From Thermoproteota archaeon (GTDB lineage: Archaea > Thermoproteota > EX4484-205 > JAAOZP01), in NCBI GenBank assembly GCA_049700215.1, contig JBNAVT010000018.1:1-44076 (forward strand): a DNA stretch of 44,076 nt. The letters are read 5' to 3'. A model generated the notes under the pieces. The model ran no database searches and was not told the DNA's origin. It saw only the letters and a program-made list of their open reading frames with translations. Each line of letters begins with the position of its first letter. Position 1 is the first letter of the stretch. Made by a program: the position numbers and the translations under genes. Shown here piece by piece: positions 28,178 to 33,422 of the stretch.

Positions 28178-28648
28178 TTGGCCAGCACCCGTGTAAAGGA
28201 GAAGTCCGCCGGCTTCATAGTTTTCGCGAAGGAGAATGGCGAGTTAAAATACCTTTTTCTAAAGGTCGGGGAGAGGCTTGATTTCCCGAAGGGCAATATT
28301 GAGGAAAACGAGGATGAGCTTTCAGCCGCGTTGAGGGAGTTGAGGGAGGAGAGTGGAATAGCTAGAATCAGGGTCATCCCAGGGTTTAGAAAGGTTTTAA
28401 ACTATTATTACAAGAGGAACGACGGCACTCTGGTCAGCAAGACACTGGTCCTTTTTCTCGGAGAAGCCTTGGAGAAGAATGTTTCAATATCCTGGGAGCA
28501 CGAGGGCTTCGAATGGTTAAGCCTTGAAGATGCGGTTGCAAGGATCAAATACCCGCGTTACAAAGAAGTTTTGAAGGAGGTTGAGGAATTCATATTGAGG
28601 AAGACGGGGGGAAGCCTAGGCAGATGGTTTGGAGAGCCTCAGGCTTAG
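28178..28648 (+). CDS. NUDIX hydrolase (asymmetric Ap4A hydrolase-like)
   Basis: SAGFIVF, Nudix box FPKGNIEENEDELSAALRELREESG, and SWEHEGFEWL. Confidence 0.92.
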   Translation: MASTRVKEKSAGFIVFAKENGELKYLFLKVGERLDFPKGNIEENEDELSAALRELREESGIARIRVIPGFRKVLNYYYKRNDGTLVSKTLVLFLGEALEKNVSISWEHEGFEWLSLEDAVARIKYPRYKEVLKEVEEFILRKTGGSLGRWFGEPQA

Positions 28649-29454
28649 AGGGGAACCTTATGCAGCCTACCCTTGTGAAACGTGGATAACTCGCAGTAGC
28701 CAACGCTCTTAGCATAATCGACAATAGCATCATAGTTTGCGTCAATCTCGCTCAGCCCGTGTGCATCCGTGCCCAGCGTCACCGGTATGCCCAGGGATTT
28801 GCATCCTTCTAAAATCCTTCTCGCAGGATAGGCCTCGCCCACGGGGCTCCTCAAACCCTTACTCGAAACCTCCACAGCCATCCCCAGCTTGACGACGCTC
28901 TCCAAGATCGCCTGCTCATCCGCCTTAAAATCCCCAGAGGGCTTAAAACCCCAGTTTCTAGCAACGTCGAAATGGGCGACAACGTTGAACAATCCTGACT
29001 CCACAGCCCTCCTTAGAAGCCCCAAGTACTTCGAGTAGAACCCGTCGAAACCCTCTTCCCTAACAGCCGTCTCGAAAGCCCTCCTGTGTTTCACACAGTC
29101 CAGGCAGAACTCACCTATCCAATGGATGCTTACCATAGTGAAATCCAGATCATTACTACCCAGGATGTCTTTCAGCATTTGTTCAGAACCTGGGAAATAG
29201 TCCACCTCTAGGCCAGCCCTCACCCTTAAGCCTTGCAAGCCTTTTTCAACAGTCCTAACCTCCTCAACGTAATCCCCTATCCTGGAAACATCTATAGAGT
29301 AATACAGTTTCTTCATCGACCCGGGTCTCACAGCCAAGTGTTCGGTGAAAGCAACCTCGTCGAAACCCTTTCTCACCGCTTCCTGGACGTATTCGAGTAT
29401 AGTAGCCCTGCCATCGCTATACGTACTGTGAATATGATAGTTCACTCTAACCAT
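28645..29454 (-). CDS. PHP-family phosphatase (histidinol-phosphatase HisJ-like)
   Basis: YHIHS.YSDG, FTEH, GLEVDY, SIH, AHFD and GTDAH. Confidence 0.88.
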   Translation of the reverse strand: MVRVNYHIHSTYSDGRATILEYVQEAVRKGFDEVAFTEHLAVRPGSMKKLYYSIDVSRIGDYVEEVRTVEKGLQGLRVRAGLEVDYFPGSEQMLKDILGSNDLDFTMVSIHWIGEFCLDCVKHRRAFETAVREEGFDGFYSKYLGLLRRAVESGLFNVVAHFDVARNWGFKPSGDFKADEQAILESVVKLGMAVEVSSKGLRSPVGEAYPARRILEGCKSLGIPVTLGTDAHGLSEIDANYDAIVDYAKSVGYCELSTFHKGRLHKVPL

Positions 29455-29534
29455 GTACCTGAGAATGCTTTCTAAAACCTAAACATTATTTAACGATTTC
29501 CCAAATCGTCGAGCGCGTAAAAACCGGGGCAACG

Positions 29535-29541
29535 TTTATAA
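29535..29541 (+). promoter_or_regulatory. TATA box of the riboswitch-thiBPQ transcript
   Basis: TTTATAA about 30 nt upstream of the aptamer 5' end. Confidence 0.6.
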
Positions 29542-29571
29542 GCAGATTTCCACGGGAAACAGCCTGACGGC

Positions 29572-29670
29572 GGTAGCTGGGGGAGCTGGGGAAACCCGGC
29601 TGAGAGGACCCTTCATGGGGGTCGACCCCGATTCACCTGATCCGGATAATACCGGCGGAGGGAAGCTACC
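29572..29670 (+). ncRNA. TPP (thiamine pyrophosphate) riboswitch aptamer
   Basis: P1 GGTAGCT/AGCTACC; GGGG..P3 GCTGGG-GAAA-CCCGGC; conserved CTGAGA; extra helix GACCCTT-CAT-GGGGGTC; ACCCC; ACCTGAT; P5 CCGG-ATAATA-CCGG; CGGAGGGAA. Lies upstream of a thiamine-type ABC transporter. Confidence 0.95.
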
Positions 29671-29706
29671 CGATGCTCCTTCTTCTACCGCCCAATATGA
29701 AAGGAG

Positions 29707-30741
29707 GTGGTAAGAATGAGAATAGGCTGGAGAATGATGGTGGCGATCGTGGTTGCAGCGTCTGCAATAGTGTCCTCAATCCTGTATCTTCAGTTCACCC
29801 AGCCTAGGCTTGAAGACACCTTGATAATCTACGGCCCCAGGGGAATCTCGGGCCTCGCAACAGCGCTTGTTAAAGAGTTTAAAAACAGGCACCCGGGTGT
29901 GAACGTGACCTTCATAAGCTACGGCATGGGTTCAATCGAGATAGCTAACAAGCTGATCCTCGAGAAGAATTCTCCCGTGGCCGATGTAATAATGGGCGTG
30001 CCGGAGTTCTACGCGAAAACCTTGATAGACGCTGGTGTTTTAGAGCCGTATAGGCCCCAGAATATTTCGCTAATACCCGCGGAGGAAATCTGGGACCCCA
30101 CGGGCACGATTATGCCGATGGACAAGGGCTATGTCATAATAACCTACAATAGTAGCGTCATCGCCAGACTAGGCCTCCCGCCGCCTGAGAGGCTTGAAGA
30201 CCTGCTTAAGCCAGAGTACCGGGGCCTAGTATTCTATCAGGATCCGACTTCAAGCGGAACCGGCTTATCATTCCTCGTATGGGTCTTGTCCGTCAAGGGT
30301 GTTGAGGAGGGATTCAGCTTCCTTAAGCAGCTTGAGCAGAGTGTAAAGACGCATCCCTCAGGCTGGACCTCATCCATAATGGCTTTGAAAAACGGCGAGG
30401 TTGCCATAGGACCAATGTTTAACACTGACGTGGGATACGAGGAGACTCCTAACCTTACAAGCATGGCTGTCGAAGGCTTTGTCTACAGGGAGGGCATAGC
30501 TCTGGTTAAAAACGCTAAACATCCTGAGATAGCCAAGAAGTTCATAGAGTTCGTTTTAAGCACCGAGGCGCAGAACCTTGTTGCACCAGAAGGCTACATG
30601 TACCCTGTTAACCCAAAGGCTTCCGTAGAGTTGTTCAGCTACGCTCCAATACCCTTGGAGAAAATAACTTTCAAAAGAGAGCTTGCCGGCAGTGTTGAGC
30701 AGTGGCTCGACAGGTGGAGGAGAGAGGTTAAAACTGGATGA
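29707..30741 (+). CDS. thiB: thiamine ABC transporter substrate-binding protein (membrane anchored)
   Basis: N-terminal TM, ILEKNSPVADV, DLLKPEYRG, QDPTSSGTGLSFL and AKKFIEFVLS..AQ..MYPVN. AAGGAGG fits a start at ATG 29716 better than GTG 29707. Confidence 0.85.
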   Translation: MVRMRIGWRMMVAIVVAASAIVSSILYLQFTQPRLEDTLIIYGPRGISGLATALVKEFKNRHPGVNVTFISYGMGSIEIANKLILEKNSPVADVIMGVPEFYAKTLIDAGVLEPYRPQNISLIPAEEIWDPTGTIMPMDKGYVIITYNSSVIARLGLPPPERLEDLLKPEYRGLVFYQDPTSSGTGLSFLVWVLSVKGVEEGFSFLKQLEQSVKTHPSGWTSSIMALKNGEVAIGPMFNTDVGYEETPNLTSMAVEGFVYREGIALVKNAKHPEIAKKFIEFVLSTEAQNLVAPEGYMYPVNPKASVELFSYAPIPLEKITFKRELAGSVEQWLDRWRREVKTG

Positions 30742-32354
30742 GCCTCGTTAGAAAGCTTCTAATCCTCACACCGTTCTTTTTATTCCTAGCCTTTTTCTAC
30801 GCAATACCCCTGTCCTTTCTCGTGGGCAACGTGAGCCCGACTGATTTCGCAAGCGTTTTAAGCGACGAGTATATTCACAGGCTGTTCTACGGGACTCTTG
30901 GACAAGCCCTACTCTCAACAGTGCTAACCCTGCTCCTAGCCCTTCCAGTAGCCTTCTTCTTCGCAAAGTATTCGTTTAAGGGTAAGAGGACCCTGGAGTA
31001 CTTGCTGCTGACAACCTTCTTCGTGCCTGCTTTCACAATAGCGGAGGGCCTAATAGTTCTGCTCGGGGAAACAGGAATTATAAATTCCCTCCTATCCCGG
31101 CTGCTTGGAACCGGTGAACCGGTTGTTAAAATCCTATACTCGATCTGGGCTGTAGTGCTGGCACACGTGATATACTATGTTCCGCTAGCAACGCTTATTC
31201 TTGAACAGGGCTTCTCCTCGGTAGACCAGAACCTTGTGGATGCGGCCAGGGTTTTCTCAGGCTCGGCTCTACGAGTCTTTAAAACGGTATACCTAAGCTT
31301 TTTAACGCCATACCTGGTTGCTGCCTCACTCCTTGTCTTCGCGTTCTCATTCATAACCTATTCGACGCCAATGCTTGTAGGAGGGAGGTTTGCAACGCTT
31401 GAGGTCGAGATATACGCCACCAGGTTTAGGCCAGTCTCATCATCCATAGCCCTATTTCAACTATTGTTAACACTATCAATATCGATCATAATCATACTCT
31501 TCAGGGAAAAGTTCTACACGCCCTCCTCAGACAGCAATCCTGTTGAAGAGCCTGTTTCAAAGCTTTTCTCAAGCCCGGGCGGGATTCTCCTCGCCGCCTA
31601 CGTGGCGCTCCTCTACGTTTTCGAGCTCGCGCCAGTCGTAATACCAGTTGTAAGCCCATTTCTGGATGCTGAGCACCCCTTCACCTGGCTTTTTAAAGAG
31701 CTGCGCGACTTTAAATTCGGCTTCGGCCTAGGCTTCACCGAGATCCTCCTTCAAAGCCTTGCAATAGCGTTGATCGTTTCAGCCGTTTCAACCATGCTTT
31801 CAGTAGCAATAGTATGGTCTTCAAAGTTTTCAGGAGGGGTCGTGGAAAAAACCGTAAGCATACTCATGGCGCTGCCGTTAACAATGTCCCGCTCATCCCT
31901 AGCCCTCGGAATACTTCTTTCCTACGGCTTCGGAGTCACCAGGCTCTACGGAAGCTGGATCCTCATGGCCATAGGGCAGTCAGCAGTAGTAATACCGCTT
32001 GCAGCAAGAATCATCGAGGCCTCTTGGAGCAGGATAGTTAAAGAGTATCGTGAGGCTGCTGACGCCCATGGGGCAACAGCCTTCTTCAGGCTGATAAGGG
32101 TTGAAATACCGCTTGTACTGCCCGCCGTGGTTGCGTCGCTCCTCATGGCGTTCTCCTCGTCTTTAAGCGACTTCACTTTCTCAACCTTCTTCAGCACGCT
32201 CAACCTGATGACGCTCCCGGTAGCCGTTAACCTGCTGATAGACTACAGGAGGCTCAGCCTTGCGTTAACCCTAACCTCACTCCTCACGATGCTCGTGATT
32301 ATTGTTGAAACAGCCGGGTCACAGTTTTCAAGAGAGAGGCTGAGGCTGATTTGA
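30738..32354 (+). CDS. thiP: thiamine/iron-family ABC permease (two fused TM domains)
   Basis: Two EAA-like loops (LVDAARVFSG, YREAADAHGA); ATGA overlap with thiB. Confidence 0.83.
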   Translation: MSLVRKLLILTPFFLFLAFFYAIPLSFLVGNVSPTDFASVLSDEYIHRLFYGTLGQALLSTVLTLLLALPVAFFFAKYSFKGKRTLEYLLLTTFFVPAFTIAEGLIVLLGETGIINSLLSRLLGTGEPVVKILYSIWAVVLAHVIYYVPLATLILEQGFSSVDQNLVDAARVFSGSALRVFKTVYLSFLTPYLVAASLLVFAFSFITYSTPMLVGGRFATLEVEIYATRFRPVSSSIALFQLLLTLSISIIIILFREKFYTPSSDSNPVEEPVSKLFSSPGGILLAAYVALLYVFELAPVVIPVVSPFLDAEHPFTWLFKELRDFKFGFGLGFTEILLQSLAIALIVSAVSTMLSVAIVWSSKFSGGVVEKTVSILMALPLTMSRSSLALGILLSYGFGVTRLYGSWILMAIGQSAVVIPLAARIIEASWSRIVKEYREAADAHGATAFFRLIRVEIPLVLPAVVASLLMAFSSSLSDFTFSTFFSTLNLMTLPVAVNLLIDYRRLSLALTLTSLLTMLVIIVETAGSQFSRERLRLI

Positions 32355-33422
32355 ATGAGGCTTGAGGTCCAAGACCTCAGGAAGAAATTCGGAGGCTTCG
32401 AGGCTTTAAGGGGCGTAAGCTTCAGCATCCCGTCTGGAAAAACACTTGCGCTCCTCGGGCCCAGTGGATGCGGTAAGACGACTACGCTCCGGATAATCGC
32501 TGGACTCCTTGAGCCTGATTCCGGCAGAATCCTTTTCGAGGGGAAGGATGTGACTGAACTCCCCCCAAGGGAGAGGAATGTTGGAATGGTTTTTCAAAGC
32601 CCAGCGTTGTTCCCAAACCTGACGGTGAGAGAGAATATTGCATTCCCCTTGGAAGCCAGGGGCAGGAGTCCTGAGGAGGTTAGGAGACGGGTTGAGGAGG
32701 TTGTGGAGCTGGTTGAACTCGCTGGGCTTGAAGAGAGGCGGCCCCACGAGCTGAGCAGGGGGCAGCAGCAGAGGGTTGCGATAGGGAGGGCCATAGCGTC
32801 CGAGGTTAAGCTGCTACTCCTAGACGAGCCCCTCACTGCTCTGGACGCTGCCTTAAGGACAGAGATATCCAGCGTTATAAGAGTGGTTCAGAGGAAACTT
32901 GGTCTTACAACTATATACGTTACTCACGACCAGCTTGAAGCGTTCGCCATGGGTGATTTTATAGCTACAATGTTCGACGGAACCATAGACTCTTACGCTG
33001 ACGCTCAAACAATGTACGCGAAGCCCCCTACGGAGAAGACAGCGAGGTTCCTAGGGTTCGTTAATAGGCTTGAGACCGTGGCAGAATACTTGGGCCAGGA
33101 AGACTTTAGGCTCGTCTTCCCAAGAGGCGAGTTCAGGATTAGGTGGCATGGGCCGGAGGCTGATGTGAAGGTTGCTGTCCTATTCAGGCCTGAGGATGCT
33201 TCAATAAGCCTAGAGGGTGAAGGCCTGCTGGAGGGCGAGCTTTCAAGCAGCATGTTTGCAGGCAGAAACGTTGTTACGCGCGTGAAAACAAGCCAGGGCA
33301 TGATTGAATGCGCGGGAAACGATTTCTCCCAGTACCGAGCAATATCCGGGATGATAGGGAGGAAGGTCATCGTCAAAATAGACCTGGACAAGGCTTTGCT
33401 GATACGGGCCAGTGGGTTCTAA
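32355..33422 (+). CDS. thiQ: ABC ATPase of the thiamine importer
   Basis: GPSGCGKTT, LSRGQQQR, LLLDEP, YVTHDQ and a C-terminal TOBE-like region. Confidence 0.83.
   Translation: MRLEVQDLRKKFGGFEALRGVSFSIPSGKTLALLGPSGCGKTTTLRIIAGLLEPDSGRILFEGKDVTELPPRERNVGMVFQSPALFPNLTVRENIAFPLEARGRSPEEVRRRVEEVVELVELAGLEERRPHELSRGQQQRVAIGRAIASEVKLLLLDEPLTALDAALRTEISSVIRVVQRKLGLTTIYVTHDQLEAFAMGDFIATMFDGTIDSYADAQTMYAKPPTEKTARFLGFVNRLETVAEYLGQEDFRLVFPRGEFRIRWHGPEADVKVAVLFRPEDASISLEGEGLLEGELSSSMFAGRNVVTRVKTSQGMIECAGNDFSQYRAISGMIGRKVIVKIDLDKALLIRASGF

Follow-up and report, generated by a model that had tools for sequence, protein, structure and literature searches.

A predicted translational OFF switch responding to thiamine pyrophosphate in the leader of a thiamine importer-like operon from a presumably thermophilic archaeon

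Background

What does a thiamine pyrophosphate (TPP) aptamer in front of an archaeal transporter gene control, and by which rearrangement of the leader? The question is raised by contig JBNAVT010000018.1 of a Thermoproteota archaeon (assembly GCA_049700215.1), of which positions 1 to 44,076 were analysed; this whole stretch of 44,076 nucleotides (nt) is called the window here. Within the window, a leader of about 150 nt carries such an aptamer and precedes three genes resembling a thiBPQ importer operon. Riboswitch mechanisms in archaea are almost untested, and the layout of this leader is directly readable, with a strong Shine-Dalgarno (SD) sequence, no terminator, and a single tract that has two partners. 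An earlier reading of the same letters (the original prediction) had proposed that an anti-P1 helix between 29569-76 and 29685-92 competes with P1, the stem that closes the aptamer, and that a separate CUCCUU:AAGGAG hairpin masks the SD under TPP. We arrive at a related mechanism with another anti-SD element. The leader is probably a TPP-responsive translational OFF switch of the thiM type, belonging to a thiBPQ-like importer operon of a thermophilic archaeon, in which one pyrimidine-rich tract would pair either with the 5' end of the aptamer or with the SD.

Results and discussion

The aptamer and its promoter

Among the Rfam families, the TPP riboswitch (RF00059) is the sole one with a match in the window. 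The match reaches 65.1 bits, where the gathering score is 54.3 (E 1.1e-10), and covers the whole model, positions 1-105 of 105. A search of the whole genome (2.09 Mb in 85 contigs) gives the same result, and the match in the window is its only TPP match. P1 consists of GGUAGCU (29572-78) and AGCUACC (29664-70), and in the covariance-model alignment the helices P1-P5 as well as the junction and loop motifs of the sensor arms (CUGAGA; ACCUGAUC..GG.UAAU.CC.GCG.AGGGA) fit the consensus. Among the ten related leaders described below, P3 and P5 contain compensatory changes (RNAalifold) and the inner pair of P1 covaries from U-A to A-U. Position 29578, the only variable one in P1, is compensated at 29664, with U-A in six leaders, A-U in three, and an extra pair in L003. 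Judged by this alignment the element is a genuine TPP aptamer, as had been claimed before, which would be expected to bind TPP, and the substrate-binding protein encoded downstream is of the thiamine type. The promoter is conserved as well: a BRE-like (transcription factor B recognition element-like) GYAAYR precedes the TATA box in 10/10 relatives, and the TATA box lies 30-34 nt upstream of GGCGG, as counted on the leader sequences of the relatives. Because archaeal TATA boxes usually stand at a characteristic distance from the transcription start, transcription is predicted to begin near 29565 (approximately 29563-29567), just 5' of the arm that would take part in switching (Table 1). The 21 sequencing runs listed for the region 29450-30450 are all of DNA.

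Table 1. Features of the leader and the operon that follows it
Feature	Position	Strand	Basis
BRE-like element and TATA box (TTTATAA 29535-41)	29529..29542	+	TTATAA invariant in 10/10 relatives
5' switching arm (putative anti-anti-SD): GGC overhang, P1 5' strand 29572-78, P2 5' strand GGGGGAGC	29569..29586	+	Conservation; complementarity to 29675-92
TPP aptamer RF00059, core 29572-29670 closed by P1	29569..29680	+	Covariance model; compensatory changes
Pyrimidine-rich predicted switching tract GCUCCUUCUUCUACCGCC(CA)	29675..29694	+	RNAduplex; conservation; SD pairing in folds
Shine-Dalgarno sequence AGGAGGUGGU, 6 nt before start codon	29702..29711	+	Match to 16S 3' end
thiB-like substrate-binding protein gene, start ATG 29716	29716..30741	+	TIGR01254; Pfam SBP_bac_6/1/8
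Fused two-domain permease gene	30738-32354	+	Pfam BPD_transp_1, two stretches
ATP-binding cassette (ABC) ATPase gene	32355-33422	+	Pfam ABC_tran

A single tract with two partners

The segment GGCGGTAG (29569-29576) overlaps the 5' strand of P1, and CTACCGCC (29685-29692) is its exact reverse complement over 8 nt. Both had been pointed out in the original prediction together with CTCCTT (29676-81), AAGGAG (29701-06), GTG 29707, and ATG 29716, and all of these can be read directly at the positions given. However, the alternative helix is larger than was claimed. The complete 18-nt tract 29675-29692 (GCUCCUUCUUCUACCGCC) is the near-perfect reverse complement of 29569-29586 (GGCGGUAGCUGGGGGAGC), and the two can form 8 base pairs (bp), a 2x2 internal loop, and another 8 bp including two G.U pairs, with an RNAduplex energy of -31.2 kcal/mol at 37 C. 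This helix shares 29572-76 with P1. The linker that contains the tract also pairs with the ribosome-binding site (RBS), at -18.4 kcal/mol in RNAduplex. If the linker is shuffled with its dinucleotides preserved, the energy towards the 5' arm is reached in 1/3000 cases, that towards the RBS in 152/3000, and both together in 0/3000. Random genomic 30-mers reach the former in 21/20000 cases, the latter in 175/20000, and both in 0/20000.

The purine-rich segments able to pair with the tract are the P2 5' strand, GGAGGGAAGC at 29657-66, and the SD, so that in the folding model the tract has at least three purine-rich partners. The third of them is GGAGGGA.GC at 29657-66, which takes in the 3' strand of P4 together with the first part of that of P1 and pairs with GC.UCCUUCU at 29675-29683. 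At 60 C, the helix between 29657-66 and CUCCUUCU belongs to the minimum free energy structure when P1 is forbidden. The full 16-bp helix was considered as the dominant form of the alternative structure and rejected; it is modelled to be less stable than the 8-bp version, which keeps P2 and P3.

Shine-Dalgarno sequence and start codon

The second partner of the tract is a very strong SD. AGGAGGUG at 29702-09 forms eight Watson-Crick pairs with the 16S 3' end (...GAUCACCUCCU), and the segment 29702..29711 forms ten if G.U and A-U are counted. The 16S 3' end was taken from five genomes of the same genus in place of the 16S of the genome under study, which is cut at a contig end and lacks it. The region AAAGGAGGUG is invariant in 10/10 relatives. 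Genome-wide, SD-like 5-mers are found at -16 to -9 before 230/1294 long open reading frames (ORFs), compared with 103/1294 in a control window. The original prediction had left the choice between GTG 29707 and ATG 29716 as the start codon. ATG 29716, followed by MRIGWR, is conserved among the relatives, and a GTG stands at the homologous position in L046. GTG 29707 is unusable in three of the relatives; a start there runs into a stop in L003 and L005 and is out of frame in L007. On this comparison the true start is ATG 29716.

Proposed mechanism

The leader holds 0 terminator-like sites between 29480 and 29800, and the + strand is free of TTTTT from 29242 to 30777. It has neither a hairpin followed by a U-tract, as had been stated before, nor the oligo-U tract of archaea that would mark a transcription-terminating riboswitch. 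Instead, the 18-nt tract would act through two mutually exclusive partners. Without TPP (ON state), the tract would pair with the aptamer's initial 18 nt (29569-29586), which include the GGC overhang and the 5' strands of P1 and P2. P1 and part of P2 would thereby be broken and AGGAGGUG and AUG 29716 left single-stranded, and 30S subunits could bind. With TPP (OFF state), P1 would close (29572-78 with 29664-70) and release the tract. CUACCGCC(C) would then pair with GG(A)GGUGG of the SD, while UUCUU and CUC would pair with the spacer and the start codon, and initiation would be blocked. Because CUACCGCC would be the anti-P1 and the anti-SD element at the same time, binding of TPP and masking of the SD would be obligatorily coupled. 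The invasion of P1 by the tract might begin from the GGC toehold.

Constrained folding is consistent with these two states. When P1 is forced, the SD pairs with 29685-94 with a summed probability of 0.81, 0.67, and 0.63 at 37, 60, and 75 C, its pairing with 29674-84 is 0.00, and the CUC and UUCUU parts of the tract pair with the AUG and the spacer. The same partner, 29685-94, is found in 8/8 genus leaders at 37 C. The idea that the SD is masked when P1 closes is thus retained from the original prediction, with 29685-94 as the partner and not 29676-81. At 75 C the RBS (29703-18) is unpaired to 0.96 in the ON ensemble compared with 0.37 in the OFF ensemble, and at this temperature forbidding P1 instead of forcing it increases RBS exposure in 10/10 genus-type leaders (+0.08 to +0.38).

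The balance of the two conformers depends on temperature. The free energy of the ON state (anti-P1 helix forced) relative to the OFF state (P1 forced) is +8.4, +5.5, +3.8, +1.8, and 0.0 kcal/mol at 37, 55, 65, 75, and 85 C, and P1 has a probability of 0.94, 0.91, 0.86, and 0.56 at 37, 60, 70, and 80 C in the unconstrained ensemble. In the model the switch would work only near the presumed growth temperature, with ON and OFF isoenergetic at about 75-85 C, and this fits a predicted thermophile. Going further, the leader might be a natural riboswitch of a TACK (Thaumarchaeota, Aigarchaeota, Crenarchaeota, Korarchaeota) archaeon that sequesters the SD and is thermally tuned, its conformers being balanced only near 75-85 C, and it might integrate temperature and TPP. 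This extension is speculative and we regard it as rather doubtful. If true, the leader would offer the first natural and tractable case in which to study how a ligand controls SD-dependent initiation on archaeal ribosomes, and it might be used as a genetic tool in hyperthermophiles.

Conservation of the leader

Orthologous leaders were collected from genomes of the same genus, public metagenome-assembled genomes (MAGs), and metagenome contigs, and with duplicates removed the alignment contains ten distinct leaders of the genus type. Invariant in all ten are the 5' arm (GGCGGUAGC), the tract (CUCCUUCU(U/C)CUACCGCC), and AAAGGAGGUG. The variation is found in the spacer between promoter and arm, in the linker after P1, in the loop before the SD, and in the spacer between SD and AUG. 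Within 29569-29586 only 29578 varies and within 29675-29694 only 29684, and both positions fall into the predicted 2x2 internal loop. The anti-P1 helix, with 8/8 pairs, is intact in every leader. The RNAalifold consensus of the ten leaders is the ON conformer with the anti-P1 helix, a GGGGG:CUUCC helix, and an unpaired RBS, which supports the alternative helix with the P1 5' strand that the original prediction had postulated. A similar picture is obtained from contigs of four further metagenomes, compared at a likeness of at least 80%, of which some represent the same lineages as the leaders and are not independent. They vary at 29550-66, in the aptamer loops, at 29674, at 29695-29700, and at 29710-29715, and in these four metagenomes there is no variant in 29569-86, 29675-94, or 29701-09. 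One contig each in the metagenome runs X3 and X9 joins 29596 to 29665 and omits 68 nt of the aptamer core (28-letter side, likeness threshold 80). These contigs may represent another organism or a deletion variant.

Evidence against the proposed switch and alternative explanations

Several results weigh against the proposed switch. The anti-P1 helix does not show the covariation in orthologous leaders to which the original prediction had looked, because its pairs never vary (8/8 invariant in the ten leaders). The core of the sequestering helix is also free of covariation, and in P1 and the sequestering structure together (22 pairs) 0 pairs have changed on both sides. Such invariance of pairs, as the alignment presents it, neither supports nor refutes a structure. 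In the lower sequestering stem the pair 29682-29714 forms in only 1/10 relatives, while 88.7% of the cells of the whole helix are paired. The conservation begins exactly at 29701, since three metagenomes have an A>T polymorphism at 29700, and the invariance of A29701 is not explained by a single tract. Composition is another concern. Shuffles of the tract pair with the RBS at least as well in 6, 74, 217, 216, 8, 40, 170, 13, 221, and 368 of 400 cases in the ten relatives, so that in six of them 74-368/400 composition-preserving shuffles match the observed energy, and the pairing with the RBS could come from the pyrimidine-rich composition alone. Ten distinct leaders of more distant orthologs (L048-L059, 62-67% protein identity) do not have a significant dual complementarity; only in L049 does the 5' pairing go beyond shuffles (6/400), the others being matched by 95-373/400. 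Finally, P1 stays closed in the unconstrained model up to 70 C and the anti-P1 helix does not exceed 0.01, so that the leader would be OFF there regardless of TPP. At 37 C, RBS exposure increases in 7/10 relatives and 3/10 do not gain, and the energy parameters are extrapolated to 75-85 C, where they are unreliable.

The best surviving alternative, although an unlikely one, is the arrangement of the original prediction, in which CUCCUU is the anti-SD element in a hairpin of its own. CUCCUU and AAGGAG are indeed exactly complementary, both are invariant in 10/10 relatives, CUCCUU resembles the CCUCCU of the 16S 3' end, and the conservation starts at A29701, which a single tract leaves unexplained. 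However, constrained folding with P1 forced puts this hairpin +9.6, +6.3, and +5.2 kcal/mol above the ensemble at 37, 60, and 75 C, and its mean pair probability is at most 0.0014, an occupancy below 0.2%. The hairpin would also have to close a 19-nt loop that holds a better partner of the SD. In addition, its two helices share no nucleotide and could coexist as an H-type pseudoknot with connectors of 3 nt and 8 nt. Therefore, TPP would not be obligatorily coupled to the masking of the SD in this arrangement.

A little less likely still, in our judgement, is that the tract serves purely as an anti-aptamer element tuning the response to the ligand, while the output of TPP lies in elongation, termination, or stability of the transcript, for example by exposing the pyrimidine tract or the 5' end to archaeal RNases. 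This would be in agreement with the shuffles, given that the tract pairs with the RBS no better than composition-matched sequences in 6/10 relatives while its pairing with the aptamer is highly specific (matched by 0-3/400). It would also agree with the state of the field, where output mechanisms in archaea are largely unexplored and a fluoride riboswitch is the sole validated native one according to a 2024 paper (PMC11549558). It is, however, hard to reconcile with the very strong SD, which stands 9 nt downstream of the tract and at a canonical distance from the AUG, and with the great difference in RBS exposure between the predicted conformers at 75 C. In addition, neither the leader nor the first kilobase of the gene contains a terminator-like hairpin or an oligo-T run.

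Very improbable is a temperature-dependent or non-switching structured 5' untranslated region, whose aptamer binds TPP and whose alternative helix is a by-product of purine/pyrimidine composition: the strong temperature dependence of the modelled balance and the several purine-rich segments pairing with the tract would be expected from it, but an exact 8-mer extending to 16 bp is matched by just 1/3000 shuffles, and the anti-P1 complementarity is invariant in 10/10 relatives, in contrast to the neighbouring linker, loop, and spacer, and the variation inside is confined to the predicted internal loop. The SD-masking switch with a single tract is thus the reading that we prefer.

The operon and its host

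The substrate-binding protein matches the NCBIfam model for thiamine ABC transporter substrate-binding proteins (TIGR01254) with 135.4 bits at a cut-off of 93.4. The nearest NCBIfam name for the permease is ThiP, with a score below the cut-off, and the gene junctions of the operon (29716-33422) overlap or abut. As one part of the whole explanation, we think it rather probable that the three genes are a thiBPQ-like thiamine importer operon behind the leader. The divergent upstream gene (28645-29454, - strand) encodes a HisJ-family PHP phosphatase.

The archaeal nature of the host, assumed in the original prediction, is borne out by the archaeal 16S fragment in the genome and by the relatives. 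Among public sequences, the nearest ones to the binding protein (83-98% identity) are encoded in MAGs from hot springs whose titles read Candidatus Brockarchaeota, Thermoproteota, or Thaumarchaeota archaeon. The fraction of the residues I, V, Y, W, R, E, and L (IVYWREL) in the proteome is 0.442, which under the linear formula that we take to apply would correspond to a growth optimum of about 79 C. The tRNAs have a GC content of 64% compared with 49% for the genome, and the 16S of the relatives has about 62%. These values point to a Brockarchaeota-like host with predicted thermophily, for which the switch would operate near 75-85 C. Within the genus, the 16S matches of five genomes (G000, contig C49 9255-10029; G002; G004; G005; G006) are interrupted around model positions 496/509-528 and 828/830, suggesting that the rRNA gene contains an insertion or a highly divergent stretch, or that the assemblies break within it.

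Other TPP leaders

Outside the genus-type leaders the arrangement differs. In the distant leaders P1 has just 3-4 contiguous bp. In some of these, for example L059, folding pairs a C-rich element with GCAAGGGG if P1 is absent and with the SD if P1 is forced, an anecdotal observation. At 52-53% identity (L064-L068) the TPP aptamer is kept and is followed by linkers of 180-250 nt with long GC-rich hairpin-like repeats (e.g. CCCGCCTCCTAGAGGTGGGCGG) before the start, which were not folded; as far as their sequence tells, this is a different, longer expression platform. Three orthologs of 64% identity (L060, L061, L062) have AT-rich upstream regions of 400 nt with no TPP-aptamer match by regular expression (the covariance model was not applied), and in these cases the regulation may be gone or another may have taken its place. 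Genome G009 contains a decayed copy of the leader (L016). With 44.6 bits its aptamer stays under the gathering score, part of P2 is gone, and the tract is mutated to CTACTGCC. It lies upstream of no binding-protein gene; the first ORF is 226 nt away and encodes an unrelated protein of 97 residues.

A much simpler layout is seen in other families of the same phylum. In eight TPP leaders (L015, L031, L033, L036, L040, L041, L042, L043) an ATG follows 4-6 nt after GGAGGGA, and seven further ones (L008, L009, L034, L035, L037, L038, L039) have a possible TTG 6-8 nt after it. These 15 leaders precede proteins of 169-199 residues that are apparently membrane proteins. In these leaders the GGAGGGA of the aptamer itself probably serves as SD, with the start codon in the P1 3' strand, which would amount to direct occlusion free of any platform. 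Most other sampled TPP leaders of the phylum are unlike that of the window, which has a separate 45-nt platform; their start codon stands 4-8 nt after GGAGGGA, and their SD would lie inside the aptamer.

Comparison with known systems

Biologically, repression by TPP is what one would expect for the regulation of a thiamine importer. The leader could show whether masking of the SD in the bacterial manner is effective with archaeal 30S subunits at high temperature, and thermophilic archaea might gain from it an expression element that TPP represses. Our literature searches turned up neither a described archaeal TPP expression platform nor an account of riboswitches in Brockarchaeota. TPP riboswitches in archaea have been predicted by comparative genomics since 2002 (Rodionov et al. 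2002, as cited in McCown et al. 2017, PMC5473149), and McCown et al. list 79 riboswitches in Euryarchaeota and 6 in Crenarchaeota. The leader resembles those predictions in that the aptamer precedes thiamine-related genes and is known only from sequence. The only native archaeal riboswitch named as validated, in a 2021 and a 2024 paper (PMC8241225, PMC11549558), is the fluoride riboswitch of Thermococcus kodakarensis (Speed et al. 2018). It is likewise natural and comes from a hyperthermophilic archaeon, but it has another ligand and aptamer and is validated, whereas the TPP switch described here is predicted.

The closest counterpart is the thiM riboswitch of Escherichia coli. In the model of Winkler et al. 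2002, as outlined in PMC2018614, the anti-SD pairs with an anti-anti-SD overlapping P1 in the absence of TPP and with the SD when TPP closes P1. The archaeal leader would share with it the RF00059 aptamer, the logic of the three elements anti-SD, anti-anti-SD, and SD, and the lack of a terminator. The anti-anti-SD differs. In thiM it is a 4-nt element in the region of the P1 3' strand (nt 83-86), whereas here it would consist of the P1 5' strand, the 5' overhang, and the P2 5' strand and form 8 to 16 bp. The leader further differs from thiM in its host, a TACK archaeon, in a modelled balance at about 75-85 C, and in its position before a transporter operon and not a biosynthesis gene. The type of device is thus well known, and what the leader offers is an unusually clear layout in a little-studied host.

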